DNA of 32,000 bases from Candidatus Saccharimonadota bacterium (lineage in GTDB: Bacteria > Patescibacteriota > Patescibacteriia > 2-12-FULL-60-25), in assembly GCA_022843095.1 (NCBI GenBank), contig JALHOH010000001.1, positions 180,001-212,000 on the forward strand. Reading direction: 5' to 3'. This document shows, in pieces, positions 5,343 through 32,000 of this stretch. Position 1 is the stretch's first letter; every line of letters starts with the position of its first letter. Both the position numbers and the translations under genes were made by a program. The notes below the pieces were generated by a model that was not told the origin of the DNA, made no database searches, and saw only the letters and a list, made by a program, of their open reading frames with translations.

Positions 5343-6566
5343 TTATTCCGGACAGAGTCCTCGCGACGCGCGATCGAGGGGGATAGCAAACTTTGTCCCA
5401 ACCCCCCAGGGATCTCGGCACGTCTGCACCTGATCCACGATGTCTTCGCCATCCTGAAGGATGGAATTGATCCCGCCCATCCGCGCCGTCCGACCGGGCG
5501 GATCAAACGAGGGATACACGGAATCGCACCGCGCGCTCACCATCAAATACCCCCGCCACGTCCAAGGAAACCGAAGCATGAGCGGCTGATCCGCGGCAGA
5601 CGCGATTGTCCGTCCATTTGGGTCCCAAGTCAGCATCTGAAGCCGACCGGGACAGAGCGCTCGAAGCGTGGCGCTCGGCGTGACCACCAATTCACGCATC
5701 ATTGGAGACATTCCCGCATCCGCCGTCATGGGTGGTGTAATCGGCGGAGGAGGCATCATCGGAAGCGATGCATCCGGCATCGGCGTGACCGCGGGCGACG
5801 GCATCGCGTCAGATGCAGCGCTCGCATCCATTATCGTGGGAGACGCGTCGTGCACACACGGAGGGGCGGATGACTCCCCCTCCAACTGCATCCGAACTTC
5901 CGACAGGAAGGTCGCCGGATCCGCAAACGATCGTCGCACAGATGGTGAACGATCATACCCACGAAACCACGCGCTCGGATCTTCCCGCTGTGCATCCGCC
6001 ATCGACTGCAGACGGATGCCAACATGCAGATGCTCTGCTCCATCTCCATTCAACGCGTCACGCTCGACATATCCAAGCGGACGATCCATACGCACCTGCT
6101 GACCCACCGCGAGACCCGTTCCAGAACCGGAACGCCCTTCGGTCTGACGCAGATGTCCATAAATGGAGAGAAACCGGGTGATCGTCACCCGCTCTCCTAC
6201 TCCATTCGTCACCTGCACCGAATGTGGAAGCAGGTGCTCGACGACCGCAACGAGCGTCCCATACCCTTGCGCCGCTCGATACACACGAAGGATCCCACAC
6301 CCGATCGGATACACGGGCGTTCCTTCTGCGAGTCGCACATCTCGTCCAAGATGGTTCCCGTCTGCCAAGAAACCACGACGCGCGTAGAGCTCCGCAAACA
6401 GGACCTCTTCGACAGGGGGTCGAAGAGTACCCGCGGTACAGGTGGCGACGACCGGAACCTCCGACGTCCCATCCACCTCGCCCTCGGCACAGGCCTGAAG
6501 CAAGAGAGAAAGAAACACTAACCCAACACACAGAGATCGAACCCACAAGGCACGAACCGTTTTCAT
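5343..6566 (-). CDS. secreted M23/LytM-family metallopeptidase with C-terminal extra domain
   Basis: 407 aa. Signal or lipoprotein-like N-terminus MKTVRALWVRSLCVGLVFLSLLLQAC. M23 motifs HLGRD (HxxxD), SIYGHL and GDGAEHLHVGIR (HxH). Pro/Met-rich linker, then about 170 aa unassigned. SD GGGAGG 6 nt before the ATG. Confidence 0.8.
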   Translation of the reverse strand: MKTVRALWVRSLCVGLVFLSLLLQACAEGEVDGTSEVPVVATCTAGTLRPPVEEVLFAELYARRGFLADGNHLGRDVRLAEGTPVYPIGCGILRVYRAAQGYGTLVAVVEHLLPHSVQVTNGVGERVTITRFLSIYGHLRQTEGRSGSGTGLAVGQQVRMDRPLGYVERDALNGDGAEHLHVGIRLQSMADAQREDPSAWFRGYDRSPSVRRSFADPATFLSEVRMQLEGESSAPPCVHDASPTIMDASAASDAMPSPAVTPMPDASLPMMPPPPITPPMTADAGMSPMMRELVVTPSATLRALCPGRLQMLTWDPNGRTIASAADQPLMLRFPWTWRGYLMVSARCDSVYPSFDPPGRTARMGGINSILQDGEDIVDQVQTCRDPWGVGTKFAIPLDRASRGLCPE

Positions 6567-16924: not shown

Positions 16925-16927
16925 AAG

Positions 16928-16955
16928 AACGCCCAAAATACGGGCGTTTTTCTTC
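16928..16955 (+). terminator. rho-independent terminator after dnaA
   Basis: AACGCCC (16928-16934), 7-nt loop, GGGCGTT (16942-16948), then TTTTCTTC. Confidence 0.65.
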
Positions 16956-16977
16956 ACTTCACACCTGATCCCCAACG

Positions 16978-17225
16978 CGATCCACAGAATCCCCCCTCCT
17001 ATCCCCAACTCATCCCACCCACATCCCCCCATTGTCCCCGGGGACAACCTGCGGACGCGTCACGGCATAACACTGTGCGCATCCTGTGCGAAGCGCCCAC
17101 CGCTTTTCTCCTTCCCCAATTCTATCCACCGCGCTCCCCCGTCTCTCCCCAATCCACTGGGGATGGAACTTCCTCATAATCCCCTTTCTTCTCTGCGAAT
17201 TCCGTACTTATCCCCGCCATCCACA
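16978..17225 (+). promoter_or_regulatory. cluster of degenerate DnaA-box-like motifs in the dnaA-dnaN spacer
   Basis: All on the same strand: CGATCCACA 16978, CTATCCCCA 16999, CTATCCACC 17122, CAATCCACT 17150, TTATCCCCG 17208, CCATCCACA 17217. Each matches TTATCCACA at 6-7 of 9 positions. Also a 16-bp palindrome TTGTCCCCGGGGACAA at 17032-17047. Confidence 0.4.
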
Positions 17226-17272
17226 CGCCCTACTACCCTTTCTGCTTTCTATATGTCTAAATCTCTCTAACT

Positions 17273-18400
17273 ATGATCTTCGCCTGCACTCAAGAAAATC
17301 TCGCACAAGGACTCGGACTCGTTGGACACATTGCGGGTAAGAATGCGAACCTCCCGATTCTTGGAAACGTACTCATGAAGACGGATGGAGGAAACCTCCG
17401 TCTTTCGACGACAAACCTAGAAATGGCGGTATCCGTCCTCATTCGAGGTCGTGTCGAACAACCAGGAGAATTCACGGTTCCCGCAAAGCTGTTGATGGAA
17501 TACGTCGCATTGCTCCCAAATGGAAAAATCGAACTCATTGTTGACGGCGATGCGTTGGAAATCAAAACCGAAGGAAACACCACCAAGATGAAAGGGATGG
17601 CCGCTGCGGAATACCCGCTTCTCCCAAAGCTCGCGACTGAAGAACCCTACAAACTCGAAGCAGGCGCACTGCGTCAGGCGATCTCGCAGGTCGCGTTCGC
17701 TGTATCCTCTTCAGACTCACGGCCAGAACTTTCGGGGGTGTCCTGCTATTTTCACGGACTTGGAGGACCAAACACCCTTGTCATGGCAGCCACTGACTCC
17801 TATCGCCTCTCAGAACGCGTCATCACCCTCCAGGGAGGCAATACGAAGGAGCAAAAGTGTATTGTGCCCGCGAGAGCCATCCAGGAAGTCGCACGCATCC
17901 TGTCGGCGTATAAGGACGAAATGGCCACACCGGAAGAAGCGTCGTGGTCCATGACGGATTCACAGTTTGTCCTGACATTTGGGAACGTGGAGTTGGTCTC
18001 GCGTCTCATTGAAGGGGCGTTTCCAGATTATCGCCAGATTATCCCCACTCAATTTCGCACGGCGTTCACTGTGACGCGCGGAGAGTTGCAAAAGGCGTTC
18101 AAGGCAGCGAGTCTGTTTTCAAAGCAAGGATTGTTTGATGTGCATGTGGCTGTGGAAAACGGTGCGCTGAAAATTAGTTCTTCGGACACCGGCACCGGTG
18201 CGCATACCACAACCATTGCGCTTGCCGAGTCGGTTGAACCAAATAAAGTCACGTTGAATTATCGGTATGTCTCGGACGGGTTATCGGCTATGGGAACGGA
18301 TACGGTGCGTTTTCAAATGATCGATGGGATGAACCCCGTCGTCATCACGCCGGCGAATGGAGAAGGGTTCCAGTACATCGTGATGCCCATCCGCCAGTAG
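17273..18400 (+). CDS. dnaN: DNA polymerase III beta sliding clamp
   Basis: 375 aa, MIFACTQENLAQGL...NLEMAVS...ATDSYRLSERV...FQYIVMPIRQ. Directly downstream of dnaA. Confidence 0.95.
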   Translation: MIFACTQENLAQGLGLVGHIAGKNANLPILGNVLMKTDGGNLRLSTTNLEMAVSVLIRGRVEQPGEFTVPAKLLMEYVALLPNGKIELIVDGDALEIKTEGNTTKMKGMAAAEYPLLPKLATEEPYKLEAGALRQAISQVAFAVSSSDSRPELSGVSCYFHGLGGPNTLVMAATDSYRLSERVITLQGGNTKEQKCIVPARAIQEVARILSAYKDEMATPEEASWSMTDSQFVLTFGNVELVSRLIEGAFPDYRQIIPTQFRTAFTVTRGELQKAFKAASLFSKQGLFDVHVAVENGALKISSSDTGTGAHTTTIALAESVEPNKVTLNYRYVSDGLSAMGTDTVRFQMIDGMNPVVITPANGEGFQYIVMPIRQ

Positions 18401-22301: not shown

Positions 22302-22332
22302 AAAAACATCCGCCATCGTGCGGATGTTTTTC
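22302..22332. terminator. hairpin terminator shared by the 3D-domain gene (+) and tRNA-Cys (-)
   Basis: AAAAACATCCGC catcgt GCGGATGTTTTT. Confidence 0.65.
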
Positions 22333-22333
22333 T

Positions 22334-22408
22334 TGGAGGCGTGGGCGGGAATTGAACCCGCGCATAGGAGTTTTGCAGACTCCTGCCTTACCACTTGGCT
22401 ACCACGCC
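22334..22408 (-). tRNA. tRNA-Cys (GCA), CCA encoded
   Basis: Reverse complement: GGCGTGGTAGCCAAGTGGTAAGGCAGGAGTCTGCAAAACTCCTATGCGCGGGTTCAATTCCCGCCCACGCCTCCA. Acceptor GGCGTGG/CCACGCC, anticodon arm GGAGT-CTGCAAA-ACTCC, T arm GCGGG-TTCAATT-CCCGC, discriminator U. Confidence 0.93.
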
Positions 22409-22536
22409 GACGAGTGAGGAACGAGAAAACAAAGAGGCTTTTTTCGAACGAATGGGATCGTAGCAAAATGGTCCTTCCGCGGGAAGAGGGAGGCAAAGAC
22501 AACGGGGTGCGGCAATGCTACATTGGCCTACGTTCT

Positions 22537-25224
22537 ATGCAGAAACCTCGGTTGTATATCTTGGATGCTAATGCCCTGCTCCATCGTGCCTGGCATGCCC
22601 TTCCGCCGCTCACGGCCCCTTCGGGGATGGTGGTGAATGCAGTGTATGGCGTGTTGATGGTGGTCATGAAATTAGTGACCGATCATAAACCGGATGCTTT
22701 TGTCGCCTGCTGGGATACGGAAGCACCCACGTTTCGACACGAAAAATACGAGGCGTATAAAGCGCATCGGGAAGAGCAGCCAGACGAGCTGTATGCCCAG
22801 GTTCCGGTACTGCAAGAAGGGCTTACCTATCTTGGAATTCCTTCGGTGGAGCTGGATGGATATGAAGCGGATGATCTGCTGGGCACGATAGCAACACGCG
22901 CCGTGCGCGATGGTTGGGATGTGACGATCGTGACCGGTGATCGCGATGCCCTGCAATTAGTGCGCGACGGAATTTCTGTGCTCGCTTTTAAGAAAGGGGT
23001 AACCGAAACGGTGTTGTTTGATGAAGCGGAGGTCAAAAAACAGTATGGCCTCTCCCCCGCGCAATTTTTGGAATACAAGGCCATGCGCGGAGACCCGTCG
23101 GACAACCTCCCGGGGATCAAGGGAATTGGAGAAAAAGGCGCCACGGATTTGCTGCAGCGCTTTGGGGATTTGCAAGGAATTTTGAATGCAGCACACGATC
23201 CGGCGTCAGCGCTCACAAAATCCGTACGGGAAAAACTGTTGGCGGCAGAATCGGATCTCCCGAATCTTTTGGAATTAGTGAAGATTGTCACGGACGCCCC
23301 CATTGAATATACGCCGAAACAACATTCCGCCGTAATTACAGACGTTGAGGGGTTCAAAAAGTATCTGCTGTCGTACGGATTTAAGACGCTGGCTGGACGT
23401 ATTGGCCAGGAGCGTCCGAACACGGCGCTCTCACGTGAGGCAGCTGTTTCGAGTAAGCCGAAAACGGGGAAGACCACGGAAATCGGTTCGCAGTCCGGAA
23501 CGTTTGTCGTTTCGTATCTGGAGTCGGTGCAGGAGGTATCGTCATGGGTCCGTGATCTCCAGACGGCGCTTCCCCTGCTTATCCATGTACAGCGCGGTCA
23601 GGAAGGATCTCTGTTTGGGGGTGCCGTGGATGGGGTGATTGTTGGTCAGGGTACACAATTATCCGTGATTCCTACGGCAACCTGCCGAAACACCGAGGTT
23701 ACCCAGCTGTTGCAGGAGGTGCTTACGCGTGCGGACCTGTTTCGTGTGGCTCATGATGGAAAACTACAACAAAAATGGTTAGAGGTCCTTGGAATAGAGG
23801 CTGGCGCTTGGTCATTTGATACCATGCTTGCCGCCTATTTGTTGGGAGCGGGAGAACGGAACCATGATATTTCGCAGATCGCGTTTACCTATGCCGGGAT
23901 GGTTGTGACGCCTGAGGCGTCGCCCGTGGTCGAGGCGGAGTCCATTTTGCGATCGATCGAGCCGCTTAAGATGGCACTAGAGGAACAGAGGCTGACGCAG
24001 GTGTTGAACAGGTTTGAGTTGCCGCTCATCCCCATCTTACGATCCATGGAACGCATGGGGATCAGGATTGATGCGGACTATCTTCGGACGCTGCATGATG
24101 AATTTCTCGCCCGCAAACAAGGGCTCGAGCAAACAATGGTGCAGCTTGCAGGGAGACCGTTTAACCCGGCGTCTCCGGGCCAGCTTGCGGAGGTGTTATT
24201 TACGGATCTTCAACTCCCGACCAAGGGAATTAAGAAAGGGAAAACAGGTTTATCTACGGCAGCCCAGGAATTGGAGAAACTGCGCGGCTCGCATCCTATT
24301 ATTGAGTGCGTCGAAGAGTATCGCGAAGTGGCAAAACTGCTTTCGACCTATGTGGATGTGTTGCCGACGCTCACCGATCGCGAAGGGCGCGTGCATACAA
24401 CATTCAACCAGGCGGTCACCGCGACGGGACGCCTGTCTTCGACGGATCCAAATTTACAAAACATCCCCATCCGGACGGAGCTTGGGCGAAAAATTCGGCG
24501 TGCATTTATTGCGTCACCAGGATATCGGTTAGTCTCATGCGACTATTCGCAAATCGAACTACGTATCATGGCGGCGCTTGCCAAAGATGAAGGCATGCGT
24601 TCGGCCTTTCTGCGCGGAGAAGATATTCATACAGCAACCGCCGCCGCAATTCTGGGGATTCCTCCTCAAGAGGTCACGAAAGATCAGCGTCGCATCGCAA
24701 AGGCGATTAACTTTGGTTTGATTTTTGGCCAAGGCCCGCAAGGGTTGTCGCAGGCGGCGGGAATCTCCTTTGCCGAGGCAAAGGAATTCATCGCTAAGTA
24801 TTTTGAGGCGTACGCCGGTATTCGGCGGTACATGGTCGAGACCAAAGCATTGGCGCAAACACTGGGGTATGTAGAAACGCTGTTTGGACGTCGACGCTTG
24901 CTTCCGGAGATCACTTCCCTGCTCCCTCAAATGCGTGCCCAGGCAGAGCGCATGGCGATCAATATGCCCGTCCAGGGCACGGACGCAGACCTCATGAAGC
25001 TTGCCATGATTCGGTTGTCACAAGATCTCCCCACGCGGTATCCAAAAGCACGCATGTTGCTTCAAGTGCATGATGAATTGGTCTTTGAGGTCCTGGAACA
25101 CGAAGTGGAGCCGTTTGCTGCGTACGTGAAAGAGTGTATGGAGCAGATCGAAAAGATCGGAGTTCCGATTGTGGTAGAGGCGAAAGTCGGCCAAAATTGG
25201 GAAGAAATGCAAAAATTGCCCTAG
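22537..25224 (+). CDS. polA: DNA polymerase I
   Basis: From ATG 22537: MQKPRLYILDANALLHRAWHALPP (5' nuclease domain). Polymerase motifs DYSQIELRIMA, RRIAKAINFGLIFGQ and QVHDELVFE. The track ORF's upstream part (22318-22536) overlaps tRNA-Cys and is rejected. Confidence 0.95.
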   Translation: MQKPRLYILDANALLHRAWHALPPLTAPSGMVVNAVYGVLMVVMKLVTDHKPDAFVACWDTEAPTFRHEKYEAYKAHREEQPDELYAQVPVLQEGLTYLGIPSVELDGYEADDLLGTIATRAVRDGWDVTIVTGDRDALQLVRDGISVLAFKKGVTETVLFDEAEVKKQYGLSPAQFLEYKAMRGDPSDNLPGIKGIGEKGATDLLQRFGDLQGILNAAHDPASALTKSVREKLLAAESDLPNLLELVKIVTDAPIEYTPKQHSAVITDVEGFKKYLLSYGFKTLAGRIGQERPNTALSREAAVSSKPKTGKTTEIGSQSGTFVVSYLESVQEVSSWVRDLQTALPLLIHVQRGQEGSLFGGAVDGVIVGQGTQLSVIPTATCRNTEVTQLLQEVLTRADLFRVAHDGKLQQKWLEVLGIEAGAWSFDTMLAAYLLGAGERNHDISQIAFTYAGMVVTPEASPVVEAESILRSIEPLKMALEEQRLTQVLNRFELPLIPILRSMERMGIRIDADYLRTLHDEFLARKQGLEQTMVQLAGRPFNPASPGQLAEVLFTDLQLPTKGIKKGKTGLSTAAQELEKLRGSHPIIECVEEYREVAKLLSTYVDVLPTLTDREGRVHTTFNQAVTATGRLSSTDPNLQNIPIRTELGRKIRRAFIASPGYRLVSCDYSQIELRIMAALAKDEGMRSAFLRGEDIHTATAAAILGIPPQEVTKDQRRIAKAINFGLIFGQGPQGLSQAAGISFAEAKEFIAKYFEAYAGIRRYMVETKALAQTLGYVETLFGRRRLLPEITSLLPQMRAQAERMAINMPVQGTDADLMKLAMIRLSQDLPTRYPKARMLLQVHDELVFEVLEHEVEPFAAYVKECMEQIEKIGVPIVVEAKVGQNWEEMQKLP

Positions 25225-26420: not shown

Positions 26421-26449
26421 TTGACAGTCGGGATTTCAATCCTTATAAT
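26421..26449 (+). promoter_or_regulatory. consensus sigma70 promoter for the tRNA-Arg/tRNA-Ala unit
   Basis: Perfect TTGACA (26421-26426), 17-nt spacer, perfect TATAAT (26444-26449). tRNA-Arg starts at 26472. Confidence 0.65.
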
Positions 26450-26471: not shown

Positions 26472-26546
26472 GTCTCCATAGTTCAATGGATAGAACGAGG
26501 GACTCCTAAGCCCTAAATCGTGGTTCGATTCCACGTGGAGACGCCA
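26472..26546 (+). tRNA. tRNA-Arg (CCU), CCA encoded
   Basis: GTCTCCA-TA-GTTC-AATGGATA-GAAC-G-AGGGA-CTCCTAA-GCCCT-AAAT-CGTGG-TTCGATT-CCACG-TGGAGAC-G-CCA. Cloverleaf folds by hand, anticodon CCT. Confidence 0.93.
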
Positions 26547-26579: not shown

Positions 26580-26597
26580 ATGTTTCACGTGAAACAT
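26580..26597. promoter_or_regulatory. parS: parS site 1 (ParB/Spo0J-binding centromere palindrome)
   Basis: ATGTTTCACGTGAAACAT. The inner 16 bp TGTTTCACGTGAAACA is the fully symmetric form of the parS consensus TGTTNCACGTGAAACA. Confidence 0.85.
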
Positions 26598-26643
26598 TAG
26601 CGTAGTGGTTTCGGTGCGTTCAAGTCCGAAAATATGAATTCGT

Positions 26644-26719
26644 GGGCCGATAGCTCAGTTGGTAGAGCGCTGCATTCGCATTGCAGAGGTCAGGGGTTCG
26701 AATCCCCTTCGGTCCACCA
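26644..26719 (+). tRNA. tRNA-Ala (CGC), CCA encoded
   Basis: GGGCCGA-TA-GCTC-AGTTGGTA-GAGC-G-CTGCA-TTCGCAT-TGCAG-AGGTC-AGGGG-TTCGAAT-CCCCT-TCGGTCC-A-CCA. The G3:U70 Ala identity pair is present. Confidence 0.95.
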
Positions 26720-26725
26720 CGTTGA

Positions 26726-26758
26726 ATACCCAGGTTGAATGACCTGGGTATTTGATTT
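26726..26758 (+). terminator. rho-independent terminator after tRNA-Ala
   Basis: ATACCCAGGT (26726-26735), loop TGAATG, ACCTGGGTAT (26742-26751), then TTGATTT. Confidence 0.7.
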
Positions 26759-27035
26759 CCCAGAAGTTTGCTCCCCCTCATCCGACAAGCTGAATAAATA
26801 CGAGGCCGTCCCTTACACCCCCGTTTCCGGTCTTTATTCGTGGCCTGTTTTTGTGGTCTCTTTTGTGTCTTGAGTGAAGGGCTGGTCTTGGTCGGTATGG
26901 AGCGATCCCGCATTGGGAATCAATGGACTTGCTGGCGGCAAAACGCTGAAAACGGTCAGGTTAATGACGGGAGTTTGATTTTTAATTTTGCAAAACAAGC
27001 ATTTTTTTGACCCATAAATAGATAAAAAATTAATA

Positions 27036-27053
27036 ATGTTTCACGTGAAACAT
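27036..27053. promoter_or_regulatory. parS: parS site 2
   Basis: Identical 18-mer. The palindrome extends to 20 bp (AATGTTTCACGTGAAACATT). Confidence 0.85.
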
Positions 27054-27096
27054 TGTGTTAATGCATTAACAGATAATGTGTCGTAAAAATCTTAGT

Positions 27097-27120
27097 CTTA
27101 TGTTTCACGTGAAACATAAG
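27097..27120. promoter_or_regulatory. parS: parS site 3 (24-bp palindrome)
   Basis: CTTATGTTTCACGTGAAACATAAG. The left flank TTAGTCTTA is shared with site 4. Confidence 0.85.
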
Positions 27121-27180
27121 CGATCGGTTCTTCGATTTTTGATACAAGCCGTTGTTCTAAATACTCGAAAGTAGAAGGAT

Positions 27181-27222
27181 AAAATTAGTCTTATGTTTCA
27201 CGTGAAACATAAGACTAATTTT
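27181..27222. promoter_or_regulatory. parS: parS site 4 embedded in a 42-bp perfect palindrome
   Basis: AAAATTAGTCTTATGTTTCAC|GTGAAACATAAGACTAATTTT. Both arms checked base by base. Confidence 0.85.
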
Positions 27223-27457
27223 TGTAGTGTTCTGAGTGGTTTGTTAGCTCGCATGACTGATGCCTTTGCAGGTTCATTGTCGGCCTTCATGTAACCGGTC
27301 CAACGGTGTATTGAGAGTAAGTGATCCGGCGCTTAGTGAGTTTCGAATGTTTTTGGAATCGTGCGGTTTGAATTGTGGGGTTTGTCGTTCTGTGGTTTTT
27401 GATGGGAAGTGAATTTGTATATTTATCGTGTCTACGGATCAACTGAGTCATAAGCAA

Positions 27458-27475
27458 ATGTTTCACGTGAAACAT
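27458..27475. promoter_or_regulatory. parS: parS site 5
   Basis: Identical 18-mer. The right flank AAGACTATTTTT resembles the right arm of site 4. Confidence 0.85.
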
Positions 27476-27486
27476 AAGACTATTTT

Positions 27487-27633
27487 TGTGGATAAGTCGT
27501 GAATGAAAATGGATGTTTTCGTCTAGATGGAAAATGGAGTCGCGAGTGAAATGGGCATGATTCATATGGATAAATGATAATTAGGAGTCTGACTCGTACA
27601 GAGAGAAATGGATGTGGATAACACTGTAGATAA
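27487..27633 (-). promoter_or_regulatory. DnaA-box cluster (candidate oriC core)
   Basis: On the + strand: TGTGGATAA 27487-27495 (9/9), TATGGATAA 27565-27573 (8/9), TGTGGATAA 27613-27621 (9/9), TGTAGATAA 27625-27633 (8/9). All are in the same orientation (TTATCCACA on the minus strand). AT-rich DNA lies at 27660-27740 and 26975-27035. Confidence 0.6.
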
Positions 27634-27836
27634 CGAAAAGAAGCTGTTCAGATCAGGAAAAGGAGTCATCAGGTTCTATTTTTCTCTAGAAATAAACAAA
27701 TAATATACGAATAAAATATTTTACGACACAATAGGACGAATTGTGAAAAGAAAGATCCTAGGAGAGCTACTAAAACTTTCTAGAGGAGCACGCCGTAGAA
27801 CTCGTGAGCGGTGAAGTCGCGTGTTATACTTTATGC

Positions 27837-28754
27837 ATGCGAATCCCGTACGTGTTTATCGTTCTCCTCGGTTTCCTACCGTTCTCCTTTGCGGTAGCGG
27901 GCATGAGCAGTGTGAATTATCAGATTGACTGGGATAATTTTAATGCGGGTGGATTGGATGCTTCTTCGAGCACGAATTACTCGATGCTGGATACGATCGG
28001 CGATAACGCATCTGGGACTAGTACGAGTGCAAGTTATCAACTATCTGCTGGATATCGAGGGATTGAGGATCAGTCGAGTTTAAGTTTTATTGTAATCACA
28101 CAGGCAAATGGAACGCAGGTGACGTACAGCGCATTTTCAAGCGGTGGAGAAACGGTCACGGTGAGTTCTGCCGCCGGATTTTCGGTGGGTGACTATCTCG
28201 TGGCGGTAGAAAATAAGGGATTTTCTCAGGATATCGCCATGGGAAAAATCACAGACATCTCAGGAAATGTGATTACGGTTGATTATTGGTCGGGAGATCA
28301 TCCCCAGATGAGCGCAGTTCCCGCAGGTGGAAATGACTACGTCTATAAGTTAAGCGGTGTTTCTGCAGAAATGGGGACGGTGACGCAGGGGACGGAGAAT
28401 ACCACGGTCACGATGGCATCCGTTCTTTCAACGGGTTCGACGGGGTACACTGTTTACGCGCATGTGAACCATGCGTTGCAAACCGTGGGTGCGCAGACCA
28501 TCGCGAATGTGGCAGATAGTTTAGTTTCTGTAGGTTCTGAAGAATACGGTGTTGCCACGACGGGGACATCTGCTCTCATGACCGGATCAGACTTTCCGCT
28601 CACAACCTCGCAGCAGGCAATACAAAATCGCGCGAGTGCTACGCCAAACGTAGCGGATCGAATGGGAGTGATCTACAAGTTATCCGTTTCCGCTGCAACG
28701 CAGGCGGGGACGTATACGCAAGACGTCACCTACACACTCACGGTTAATTACTAG
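27837..28754 (+). CDS. secreted protein of unknown function (triple S-x-N/S-Y repeat, pilin/WxL-like C-terminal strand)
   Basis: From ATG 27837: MRIPYVFIVLLGFLPFSFAVAG signal peptide. The track start, GTG 27804, is possible but adds a non-signal-like 11 aa. Ser/Thr/Gly-rich beta-type composition. Ends AGTYTQDVTYTLTVNY. Confidence 0.75.
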   Translation: MRIPYVFIVLLGFLPFSFAVAGMSSVNYQIDWDNFNAGGLDASSSTNYSMLDTIGDNASGTSTSASYQLSAGYRGIEDQSSLSFIVITQANGTQVTYSAFSSGGETVTVSSAAGFSVGDYLVAVENKGFSQDIAMGKITDISGNVITVDYWSGDHPQMSAVPAGGNDYVYKLSGVSAEMGTVTQGTENTTVTMASVLSTGSTGYTVYAHVNHALQTVGAQTIANVADSLVSVGSEEYGVATTGTSALMTGSDFPLTTSQQAIQNRASATPNVADRMGVIYKLSVSAATQAGTYTQDVTYTLTVNY

Positions 28755-28756
28755 GT

Positions 28757-29695
28757 ATGCGCTTCTTTTGGCTTTTGCTTACGGTGGCCTTTGTCGGATT
28801 TCCGCGTATTTCTGAAGCGTTTACCATGTCGCCGACGATGCTGGATGTGTTGGTCCAGCCCGGGGCATCTGCGTCGGCGTATGTCACGATTGGGAATGAT
28901 GAGCGTGAGCCTGCTACGTACTATCTGAGTGTCCAAAAATTTGTTCCAAACGGTGACCAAGGGCAGCAGGAGTTCTTACCACCCACAGAAAAAAGCGGTT
29001 TACCTTCATGGGTGCAGCTCGATCGGGTGAGTGTGACGCTACGACCGGGAGAAATTCGTCGCGTTCCGTTTGAGGTGAAGGTTCCGGCAGGTACACAGCC
29101 GGGCGGATACTACGGTGTTCTGTTCTTTTCAAATGTTCCGCCGGGCTCAAATGCAGACCAATCCATCGTCGCCGGGTCGCGTGCGGGGATGTTGTTATTT
29201 GTTACGGTAAAGGGGGCAATTATTGAAGAAAGTGAGTTGCAAACATTTGAAGTGGATCACATGTGGACCAACCGTTTACCGGTTCTTTTTACGTCTGTTT
29301 TACAGAATAAAGGGAATGCATTTCTGATCCCGCAAGGGTCTGTGACGGTGAAGAATCTCTTTGGACAAACCGTTGCTCAGTTACCATTTAATCCAGAATA
29401 CAAGCGCGTTCTCCCAAATTCGGGTCGTCGTTATACGCAAGCATGGGCAAAACGTACCCCGGAAAATGGTGGGGGATTTTGGTATGAATTAAGCGAGGAA
29501 TGGAAGAATTTTGCATTCGGACGCTATCGTGCGGAATTGCGTATCGTAGGACAAAGCGCAGGAACCATGCATCGAGCAGAAACCGTTATTTACGTGTTTC
29601 CTTGGCGTCTGATGTTGGTCGCAGGTTTCCTGACGGTGTTAATCAGTGTTCCACTTGTGCGGGCACGGCGTGATGCGCGTGCACGGTCGAGCTGA
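28757..29695 (+). CDS. signal-peptide, C-terminally TM-anchored two-domain surface protein (DUF916/DUF3324-like architecture)
   Basis: 312 aa. Signal MRFFWLLLTVAFVGFPRISEA. Ig-like-looking domain patterns (LDVLVQPGASASAYVTIGNDEREPATYYLSVQKF, VSVTLRPGEIRRVPFEVKVPAGTQPGGYYGVLFF). C-terminal TM WRLMLVAGFLTVLISVPLV plus a basic tail RARRDARARSS. Starts 2 nt after the previous stop. Confidence 0.75.
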   Translation: MRFFWLLLTVAFVGFPRISEAFTMSPTMLDVLVQPGASASAYVTIGNDEREPATYYLSVQKFVPNGDQGQQEFLPPTEKSGLPSWVQLDRVSVTLRPGEIRRVPFEVKVPAGTQPGGYYGVLFFSNVPPGSNADQSIVAGSRAGMLLFVTVKGAIIEESELQTFEVDHMWTNRLPVLFTSVLQNKGNAFLIPQGSVTVKNLFGQTVAQLPFNPEYKRVLPNSGRRYTQAWAKRTPENGGGFWYELSEEWKNFAFGRYRAELRIVGQSAGTMHRAETVIYVFPWRLMLVAGFLTVLISVPLVRARRDARARSS

Positions 29696-29713
29696 TCAGG
29701 GTACACTACGCTC

Positions 29714-32000
29714 ATGCGTACGGGACGATTTGTTGCAGCCTTGTTGTGGTCATTTTTTGGTATTGCCATGGTGTTTGCCTCTGCGCTCGCGGCAACGCTC
29801 ACCAGTCGAAGTGATACCATGACGCGCCAGCAGGTGAGTCAATCGTCCAATCATGAAATTCGGTTTACCACACCGACGGGGGTAGATGCACCCACAGATA
29901 CCATTCGGCTCTCGTTTCCGTCTTCGACGTTTTCGCTTAGCGCCATTGGTTTCGGTGACATCGATCTTTTACATGGGGCCGTGACCGGTTTTGAAACGAG
30001 CGAAACATTGGGCGCAACAGCGGCGGCGGGCGTGTGGGGCGTCGCAACGACCTCGCAGACGATTGTTTTTACCCCACCCACGAATGCAGCTCTTGGAGAA
30101 ATCGCGGCCTCGGCAAAGGTCGTGATTCGCATCGGGACAAATGCCTCTGGTGGCGTGGGTCAGATTGTGAATCCAAGCGGATCCGGTAGATTTACCATTT
30201 CTATTGATGGGGGGTTTGGGGATGTGGGAGGCATCGAAGTGCCGATTGTTTCTGGAGACACGGCCGCAGTGTCTGCCACCATCCCTGCAGCAGGAGGTGG
30301 GGGCGGCGGCGGAGGGGGTGGCGGCGGCGCTCCAATTCCAGGAGATACGACAGCACCGCTTATTTCGAATATTCGCGCAGAAGCAATTACGACCTCATCC
30401 GTTCAGATTGCCTGGGATACCGATGAAGCGTCTGACACGAAGGTGGAGTTCGGGATGACGGTCGGGTATGAGCTTGGTGCATCTTCTACGTCGGGTTTGG
30501 TGACCGCGCATCGTATTTGGTTGTCGAACCTGAATCCGAGCACCGTCTATCACTTTCGCGTTTCCTCCAAAGATGCGCAGGCAAACACGGCAACGTCGGC
30601 GGATCAGGTCTTCACGACGCTCGCTATTCCGGCCCCTCCGGTTCTTTCGAATATCCGCGTTCAATCGCTGACCGATGTGTCTGCGGTGGTATTGTGGGAT
30701 ACGGATATTCCCGCGACGACCCGTCTTGAATACGGCCGCGTTGTTCCATACAGCGCAGAGCAATCGATCGCCGGGACACGTACCAGTCACGCGGTGCCAC
30801 TGTCGGGATTGCTTCCTGGAACGACCTATCAGTTTCGTGTTAGCGGGACCAGTACAGCCGCGCTTTTTTCTCAATCGGCAAATCAAACCTTCACAACAGT
30901 GACGGATACCACCCCACCCGCGAATGTGAGTGGACTCGCGGCGTCACCGGGAGACGGGGTTGTGAAATTAACCTGGGTCAATCCGACTGATCCGGATTTT
31001 TCTCGTGTCATCATCGTTGCGCGCACGGATCGCTCGCCCACCGGAATCGCGGATGGACGCGTGGTCTATTCTGGGAATGCCTCGACCGTGACAGACAGCG
31101 GGTTGATTAATGGAGTCACGCAGTTCTATGCCGTGTTCGCCCAGGACGACAAAGGGAATGCGTCGAGCGGTGCTCTGGTTGATGCGACCCCGGTTGGACC
31201 ACCAGCCCCGCCACCAGTGCCGCCTGTTTTGCCTCCACCAGTTCCGGTTCCGACCCCAACGCCCACCCCCGCGCCCCCGAGTGGTCCGGGAGGGACGGTG
31301 ATCACGCCACAGCCGACGCCTGCACCGACACCAGCCCCGACCCCAACGCCTGCACCATCTCCTGCACCAACTCCAACGCCAGCTCCGATCCCGGAACCCA
31401 CGCCAACCCCGACGCCAGAACCGACACCGGATCCAACCCCCATTCCGGTTCCAACGCCAGGCGGGGAGATCGTTCGGATTCAGCCTCAATTTTCCGTTCC
31501 AAATAGCCCTCTTCTTCTTCAGCCAGGAACAACGGGTGAAGTAACTCTGCTTTTTGGGAAGCCTGTCTCAATTTCCGTCCCATCTGCCGGTTTGCCGTCT
31601 CTGCCTGTGCGCGGAGAGATTCAGTTTGGTCGAGATCGGTACGCGCTGACCCCTAGCCCATTAAGTGGTGCGTTCTCCGCCGTGTTTGTCCCGTCGTCGA
31701 TGGGAGCGGTTTCCGCAACGGTTCGGGTGTATTTTACAAACGGCGCGGAAGCGGTCACAACGATTCCGACACGCGTGATTGCGCAGGGCGTGGTACGAGA
31801 GGCCTCTTTGGCGGGTGAAGGTGCACTGATCGCGGATGCAACGGTCACGCTCTACGATGAAGCGGGTCGCGTTTGGAATGCGCGTGCATTTGGCCAACAG
31901 AATCCGGTGGTAACGGGGAAGGAAGGGGTGTTTGGTTGGTATGCGCCGACCGGAGCCTATCGCGTGGTGGCATCGAAGAATGGGTATCAGTTGCAAGAGA
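29714..32000 (+). CDS. large secreted surface protein, 3'-truncated by the window (N-terminal domain, poly-Gly, 3 FN3-like repeats, Pro/Thr linker, CarboxypepD_reg-like region)
   Basis: Not in the ORF track. I translated frame +2 codon by codon from ATG 29714 to 31999 and found no stop (over 762 codons). Signal [28 protein letters not shown]3-type repeats such as [31 protein letters not shown]...[10 protein letters not shown]. All minus-strand track ORFs here are shadows. Confidence 0.85.

Follow-up and report, generated by a model that had tools for sequence, protein, structure and literature searches.

The DNA analysed here is a 32-kb stretch (hereafter the window) of contig JALHOH010000001.1, positions 180,001 to 212,000, from an assembly filed under Candidatus Saccharimonadota (GCA_022843095.1). 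Between the gene for tRNA-Arg(CCT) and a pilus-like surface-protein operon it carries five exact copies of an 18-bp perfect palindrome, ATGTTTCACGTGAAACAT, which are candidate parS sites, the centromere sites bound by the partition protein ParB, and which we number parS-1 to parS-5 (Table 1). The 16-bp core of all five is the fully symmetric form of TGTTNCACGTGAAACA, the parS consensus tabulated for chromosomal ParBs (PMC7022226), and the centres of neighbouring sites are 456, 64, 93 and 265 bp apart. Dinucleotide-preserving shuffles gave a chance expectation of 0.03 for ATGTTTCACGTGAAACAT, even when three mismatches were allowed, and at least five copies were present in none of 100 shuffles; a search of the whole window for further TGTTNCACGTGAAACA-like sites with up to three mismatches returned none beyond the five. 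The copies, their spacings and the match of the core to parS had been described in a first-pass annotation of the window and are confirmed.

Table 1. Coordinates of the putative parS sites and of the features around them in the window.
Feature	Coordinates	Strand	Remarks
parS-1	26580-26597 (core 26581-26596)		Exact match; in the tRNA-Arg/tRNA-Ala spacer
parS-2	27036-27053		Exact match
parS-3	27100-27117		Exact match; extended left flank TTAGTCTT in common with parS-4
parS-4	27193-27210		Exact match; centre of a 42-bp perfect palindrome, 27181-27222
parS-5	27458-27475		Exact match; right flank AAGACTA in common with parS-4
AT-rich island	26720-27803		1.08 kb, holding parS-2 to parS-5; from tRNA-Ala to the pilus-like surface-protein operon
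tRNA-Arg(CCT)	26472-26546	+	ARAGORN, Rfam; left anchor of the conserved locus
tRNA-Ala(CGC)	26644-26719	+	ARAGORN, Rfam; inside the span of the palindromes
Sigma-70-type promoter, TTGACA-17-TATAAT	26421-26449	+	12 of 12 consensus matches; 23 bp before tRNA-Arg
Four DnaA boxes	27487-27633	-	Boxes at 27487 and 27613 are perfect TTATCCACA; those at 27565 and 27625 have one mismatch
dnaA	15479-16924	+	Pfam
dnaN	17273-18400	+	Pfam
dnaA-dnaN spacer, probable oriC	16925-17272	+	DnaA-box-like cluster, near the skew minimum

The island that holds four of the sites has a guanine-plus-cytosine (GC) content of 0.39 against 0.54 for the whole window, in keeping with the AT-rich setting that had been claimed for the palindromes. 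They had also been placed in non-coding DNA, which holds in part: the span from the first to the last palindrome includes the gene for tRNA-Ala(CGC), but the remaining 1.08 kb is without a conserved open reading frame (ORF) or an Rfam family, and the only Rfam families across the locus are the two tRNAs. Sub-threshold Rfam matches to 'miRNA' families in the island were dismissed as artefacts of a 37-nt inverted repeat formed by parS-3 and parS-4 (see below). Two island ORFs were considered as genes and rejected, one of 97 aa that matches related genomes solely through the antisense strand of tRNA-Ala and one of 92 aa that has no match in them.

The window belongs to an Uhrbacteria-like lineage of the candidate phyla radiation (CPR; Patescibacteria) by its closest matches: the nearest PolA proteins among GTDB species representatives are 55-63% identical and come from metagenome-assembled genomes (MAGs) named Candidatus Uhrbacteria or 'Patescibacteria group', and homologues of the window's FtsK carry the NCBI name Candidatus Uhrbacteria. 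Twelve close relatives with PolA 55-66% identical, eleven genomes (L001, L004-L010, L012, L048 and L059) and one metagenome contig (L198), were compared with the window. All twelve have the gene order polA, holA-like, rpsT on the minus strand, tRNA-Arg(CCT), tRNA-Ala(CGC) and the pilus-like operon, and all twelve have 3-13 parS sites (up to one mismatch) at the tRNA locus, spanning 0.1-1.4 kb, with at least one between tRNA-Arg and tRNA-Ala in 11 of them. Perfect sites number 12 in L004, 13 in L005 and 12 in L048, the densest arrays reaching 13 in 1.4 kb. Three distant loci whose PolA is 43-44% identical (L015-L017) have kept a single parS, exactly between the two tRNAs; the polA locus of L018 has none, and none lies within 10 kb on either side of about 60 polA loci of other, non-CPR phyla. 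Outside the island no parS was found in the relatives' 22-kb loci, about 250-270 kb in all, or in the related contigs L205 (22 kb on the ftsK-rpoBC side), L206 and L207.

An alignment of 91 sites from the window and its eleven genome-derived relatives located the conservation precisely. Each of the 16 core positions carries 1.7-2.0 bits of information; the value drops to 0.6-0.7 bits at the first and second flanking positions on either side, where A or T is preferred, and is near zero farther out. Sensitive blastn comparison of the island with the relatives aligned the parS sites alone, the spacers being without homology, and the spacings between sites are irregular, with minima of 64 bp in the window and 32 bp in the relatives. 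A kept position together with conservation of the 16-mer and nothing else indicates an old locus whose content turns over under selection on a sequence of the size that ParB recognises; as judged from this alignment, purifying selection is confined to the 16-bp core and does not extend to the spacers, and the copy number (3-13) turns over fast.

The architecture of the array in the window offers a view of how it may have grown. The arms of the palindrome centred on parS-4 (27181-27201 and 27202-27222) are 100% complementary with no gap, and parS-3 and parS-4 form an inverted repeat of 37 nt, 27084-27120 with 27190-27226, whose arms are 69 nt apart. Extended flanks are common to parS-3, parS-4 and parS-5 in both direct and inverted orientation and, with the 42-bp palindrome, they suggest that the array grew through local duplications. 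The repeat and the palindrome have cruciform potential and bear the sign of an inverted duplication. In all five sites the core is preceded by A and followed by T, hence the 18-bp palindrome; at position -1 the relatives' sites have A in 57% and T in 35%, and those of L004 are as uniform as the window's. The uniform outer bases suggest homogenisation within an array or an extended preference specific to the lineage. Tandem Repeats Finder returned no repeat unit in the array.

Dense perfect arrays of this kind had been thought uncommon, an assessment that proved overstated. A pattern of three perfect sites with gaps of 30-60 and 60-90 bp (within about 200 bp), which the window itself matches, was found in four IMG/VR contigs and at least 120 metagenome loci; among the 120 metagenome matches listed, the maximum number of perfect sites per 900 bp is 3-13, and half have at least five, which makes dense perfect arrays a widespread natural form of centromere. 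Hidden Markov models (HMMs) of ParA and ParB, built from ORFs of the array loci, were run on every open frame of 124 of these loci and of the window. Among the 124 listed, parB was detected in 42, parA in 52 and either gene in 54 (about 44%), and the median distance between the par ORF and the nearest parS is 75 bp (300 bp or less in 45 loci). Arrays that adjoin parAB elsewhere are direct evidence of what dense parS arrays are. The ParBs gathered in this way look Firmicutes-like or come from high-GC non-CPR lineages. Helical phasing of the sites did not reach significance (best Rayleigh p about 0.008 over 11 periods), and the metagenome set is biased in this respect by the search pattern.

The listed loci also differ in composition, those with parAB having a median GC of 0.56 and those without a median of 0.37. 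The AT-rich loci without parAB include six CPR-like contigs with the array 0.3-1.1 kb upstream of dnaA (L086, L100, L103, L115, L147 and L190), whose DnaA is 43-45% identical to that of the window; on L086 a stretch of 970 bp (1044-2012), 1.1 kb upstream of dnaA, holds 15 perfect sites, and the array of L100 lies at 5532-6223. On these low-GC contigs the centromere probably lies within oriC or abuts it. Two more distant CPR contigs, L143 and L148, also among the loci without parAB, have the arrangement rpsT, tRNA-Ala, array. Human-gut metagenome contigs with GC of about 0.5 (L093, L096, L118, L142 and L177, also L116 and L136) have 12-17 perfect parS distributed across 6-9 kb on either side of one parAB operon, and identical ParA HMM scores in four of the gut contigs probably reflect one recurrent species. 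The four IMG/VR contigs, catalogued as viral (L081-L084), have 3-6 perfect parS of chromosomal type, and L081 also encodes ParB; these contigs may be cellular DNA that was mis-binned, or else elements relying on centromeres of the host type.

In light of the motif, its conservation and its counterparts beside parAB, the five palindromes are very probably chromosomal parS sites that form the origin-proximal centromere, or multi-site ParB loading centre, of an Uhrbacteria-like CPR chromosome. They combine a match to the 16-bp consensus with a position near the origin, selection on the core and rarity elsewhere in the sequence examined, and the first-pass proposal of a centre of ParB loading and nucleation near the origin gains support at the level of sequence from the canonical motif, the distance of 9-10 kb from dnaA-dnaN, the synteny and the core-only selection. 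Passages of PMC7022226 and PMC8494293 describe how ParB dimers at parS bind CTP (cytidine triphosphate), close to clamps, slide off and are replaced, and how ParA then moves the ParB zone so formed, which also loads SMC. Applied to the window, ParB dimers would recognise each 16-bp site through their helix-turn-helix (HTH) domains, and CTP-bound clamps would slide away and be replaced at the site, with every parS acting as an independent loading gate. Spacings of at least 64 bp would leave room for simultaneous occupancy of all sites, so that five gates would load about five times faster than one; occupancy by ParB and the gain in loading from multiple sites are what we infer from such a layout. 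Five gates in 0.9 kb would then produce one dense ParB zone of roughly 10-20 kb, reaching the dnaA-dnaN origin about 10 kb off, and this complex would be the object that ParA (if present) moves and the place where SMC is loaded.

The distribution of the par genes weighs against this interpretation. Neither ParA nor ParB was found in the window, as the first-pass annotation had also stated, by Pfam and NCBIfam scans of the main ORFs or by the ParA and ParB HMMs run on all frames of at least 70 aa, and the 22-kb syntenic loci of the twelve relatives had neither. In L205, the closest indexed relative, the 22 kb left of ftsK hold rpoB/rpoC and genes for an HTH_25 protein and for unknown proteins, and no parA or parB. 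Combined, the loci examined from this lineage extend from about -25 to +20 kb relative to dnaA and are free of par genes, which is unusual, the region around dnaA being the usual location of parAB. Searches of the available literature on ParB and parS in Patescibacteria (CPR, Saccharibacteria, Parcubacteria and Uhrbacteria) likewise yielded nothing relevant, nor any paper on how chromosomes are segregated in these bacteria. The conservation pattern nevertheless makes it close to certain that the sites have a cognate binding protein; a canonical ParB would presumably be encoded elsewhere in the genome, and the same is presumed for ParA.

The genes of the window, called by Pfam and NCBIfam scans of the main ORFs, place the array on the chromosome. 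A first block on the minus strand comprises ftsK, recA, an M23 peptidase gene, comEC, ugd, a NUDIX protein gene and ychF, and is followed by tig and nfo on the plus strand and by yidD and rnpA on the minus strand, divergent from dnaA. Right of dnaN lie a class A penicillin-binding protein gene (minus strand), tRNA-Cys, polA, the HolA-like gene, rpsT (minus strand), the two tRNAs and the island. The presence of ftsK, recA, tig, rnpA, yidD, dnaA, dnaN, polA and rpsT together marks the region of a chromosome origin and not a plasmid. A 276-aa neighbour was considered as a hidden centromere-binding protein and rejected, being a HolA-like delta subunit of DNA polymerase III (TIGR01128, E 2e-13, below the family cut-off). 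The longest polA frame opens with GTG at 22318, and its 5' part coincides with the gene for tRNA-Cys(GCA), 22334-22408 on the minus strand; the overlap with this part of the frame (22318-22548) indicates that the true start of polA lies downstream, at about 22549.

The origin itself is probably the dnaA-dnaN spacer rather than the island. The DnaA-box core ATCC[AC]C recurs 11 times in the spacer, where shuffles give 0.76, and no other 350 bp of the window has as many; ten of the 11 share one orientation, in a spacer that is 41% C and 14% G, and no match to TTATCCACA with up to one mismatch was found in it. In the relatives the same spacer has 2-3 near-perfect DnaA boxes. In the window cumulative GC skew is lowest at 17831; in relatives with dnaA in view the minimum falls at dnaA/dnaN in L001 (4077) and L006 (4030) and at or left of dnaA/dnaN in the others (L012, 1051), never at the island. 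With the origin at dnaA-dnaN, the parS array lies 9.3-10.2 kb to its right, about 1% of a genome of about 1 Mb and well within the ori domain, where chromosomal parS sites are normally found (PMC7022226).

The same evidence bears on an alternative in which the island itself belongs to the replication origin, as an unwinding region or a second cluster of DnaA boxes, with the palindromes serving as origin elements and not primarily as centromeres. Four DnaA boxes, two of them perfect, begin 12 bp past parS-5, where 0.34 would be expected, a significant cluster in this genome; the island has the lowest GC of the window, as has its counterpart in the locus of each relative; and the other CPR-like contigs described above have dense parS directly upstream of dnaA. 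The distant loci add a convergent pair of DnaA boxes in the same intergenic region, 46 bp apart in L015 (16849/16895), L016 (12263/12309) and L017 (16736/16782), upstream of a homologue of the first surface-protein gene. Yet skew is still rising across the island, the densest cluster of DnaA-box-like motifs belongs to the dnaA-dnaN spacer, and the islands of close relatives have 0-2 boxes, near expectation, leaving the island without a conserved DnaA-box cluster and AT-rich element at a skew switch. The conservation of exactly the parS 16-mer would also be left unexplained, and we regard an origin in the island as improbable. For the first-pass remark that the palindromes sit beside tRNA genes and DnaA boxes this means that both neighbours are present in the window but that the DnaA boxes are not conserved in close relatives; they may mediate DnaA-dependent regulation or form a cluster that titrates DnaA.

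The flanking genes raise another possibility, namely that the palindromes are operators of the tRNA genes or of the pilus-like operon, bound by a ParB-like (KorB) or an unrelated HTH regulator and without a role in segregation. parS-1 lies within a tRNA operon with a consensus promoter, parS-2 to parS-5 lie upstream of a conserved surface-protein operon, and the silencing of parS-proximal genes by ParB is known from some species (PMC7022226). Set against this, 3-13 copies with free spacing are atypical for operators, no regulator gene is adjacent, the sequence is that of the pan-bacterial parS, and the same arrays adjoin parA or parB at 54 of the 124 listed loci, which together leave little likelihood for a purely regulatory function. 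If tRNA-Arg and tRNA-Ala are co-transcribed, parS-1 would lie inside a heavily transcribed unit. After tRNA-Ala, at about 26729-26758, a hairpin with a T-rich tail looks terminator-like by eye, and the scan tool made no call there. Three genes for secreted proteins directly past the island occupy 27804-32000, an operon conserved in all relatives. Their products are, in order, a protein (s316) that matches the CPR-type pilus protein PamT weakly and below threshold, one with a weak WxL-interacting PGBD match, and one of more than 768 aa, cut off by the window end, that combines fibronectin type III domains with Pro/Thr-rich linkers.

Two further explanations invoke mobile or repeated DNA. tRNA genes are common integration sites, the composition of the island is distinct and similar arrays occur on the four IMG/VR 'viral' contigs, so that the array could be what remains of the partition locus of a plasmid or phage that had inserted at the tRNA genes; this is very improbable for a locus without integrase, parAB or a direct repeat of the tRNA 3' end, syntenic in all twelve relatives and in the distant CPR contigs L143 and L148, and conserved in its 16-mers alone. 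That the palindrome is a dispersed repeat of the repetitive extragenic palindrome (REP) or miniature inverted-repeat transposable element (MITE) type, five copies of which cluster by chance, is barely credible in spite of the identical palindromic copies and the extended flanks common to three of them, because no conserved unit extends past 16-18 bp and, in place of many dispersed intergenic copies, there are none in the remaining 31 kb of the window, outside the relatives' islands or in L205-L207 (about 300 kb in all).

Taken as a chromosomal centromere, the array shares much with systems already characterised. In model species the parS sites are dispersed across tens to hundreds of kb, whereas those of the window, in an uncultivated CPR host, are all perfect and identical, lie within 0.9 kb and are not beside parAB, at least between about -25 and +20 kb from dnaA as covered in the lineage. 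Both have 16-bp palindromes of the TGTTNCACGTGAAACA class, several per chromosome and in the ori domain, with ParB-CTP loading, spreading and SMC recruitment presumed for the window; totals per chromosome are 10 in Bacillus subtilis and in Corynebacterium glutamicum, 5 in Caulobacter crescentus, 21 in Streptomyces coelicolor and 22 in Myxococcus xanthus (PMC7022226 Table 1). Closer in form are arrays adjacent to parAB in uncultivated bacteria (L110, L124, L127 and L199), with 5-9 sites of the same perfect 16-mer in 0.4-1.3 kb at a GC of 0.59-0.63, a comparable density and irregular spacings, mostly of 40-110 bp; arrays of this class abut parA (median 75 bp), whereas that of the window lies at tRNA-Arg/tRNA-Ala with no par genes near. 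The sopC centromere of the F plasmid has 12 tandem 43-bp repeats, each with an inverted repeat that binds SopB, and adjoins sopAB. Like sopC, the window has many identical sites for a ParB-family protein in less than 1 kb, which would form one partition complex, but sopC is regular, tandem and plasmid-specific, whereas the window array has unrelated spacers, irregular spacing and the chromosomal consensus, and neither a regular tandem unit nor its own parAB or sopAB genes beside it. The CPR-like contigs with arrays at dnaA (L086 and others) resemble the window in their CPR-type DnaA, dense perfect parS, AT-rich composition and lack of parAB in the locus, and differ in that their arrays lie directly upstream of dnaA and not 10 kb away at a tRNA locus.

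What is mildly new here is the density and perfection of the array, the turnover of its copy number, its anchoring at a tRNA locus away from parAB and its CPR host, the kind of site being already known. A broader and speculative view, which we consider unlikely, is that the centromere of Uhrbacteria and related CPR bacteria is a hyper-dense, fast-turnover array of perfect parS (3-15 per about 1 kb) in a strongly transcribed tRNA operon, uncoupled from parAB. Such a platform would have a high capacity for loading ParB, perhaps an orphan ParB, and may offset very low protein copy numbers in ultra-small cells; it may also be coupled to DnaA through the boxes adjacent to it here.

On the preferred reading, that of an origin-proximal centromere, the array would give a lineage of the CPR/Patescibacteria a concrete centromere defined at the sequence level, conserved in position and quick to change in copy number, and in the annotation of Uhrbacteria MAGs the array and the dnaA-dnaN spacer would together mark the origin region. 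Tight arrays of perfect sites are widespread in uncultivated bacteria, in contrast to the scattered, degenerate sites of model organisms, and these dense arrays may serve as natural material for understanding how site number sets the rate of ParB-CTP loading.

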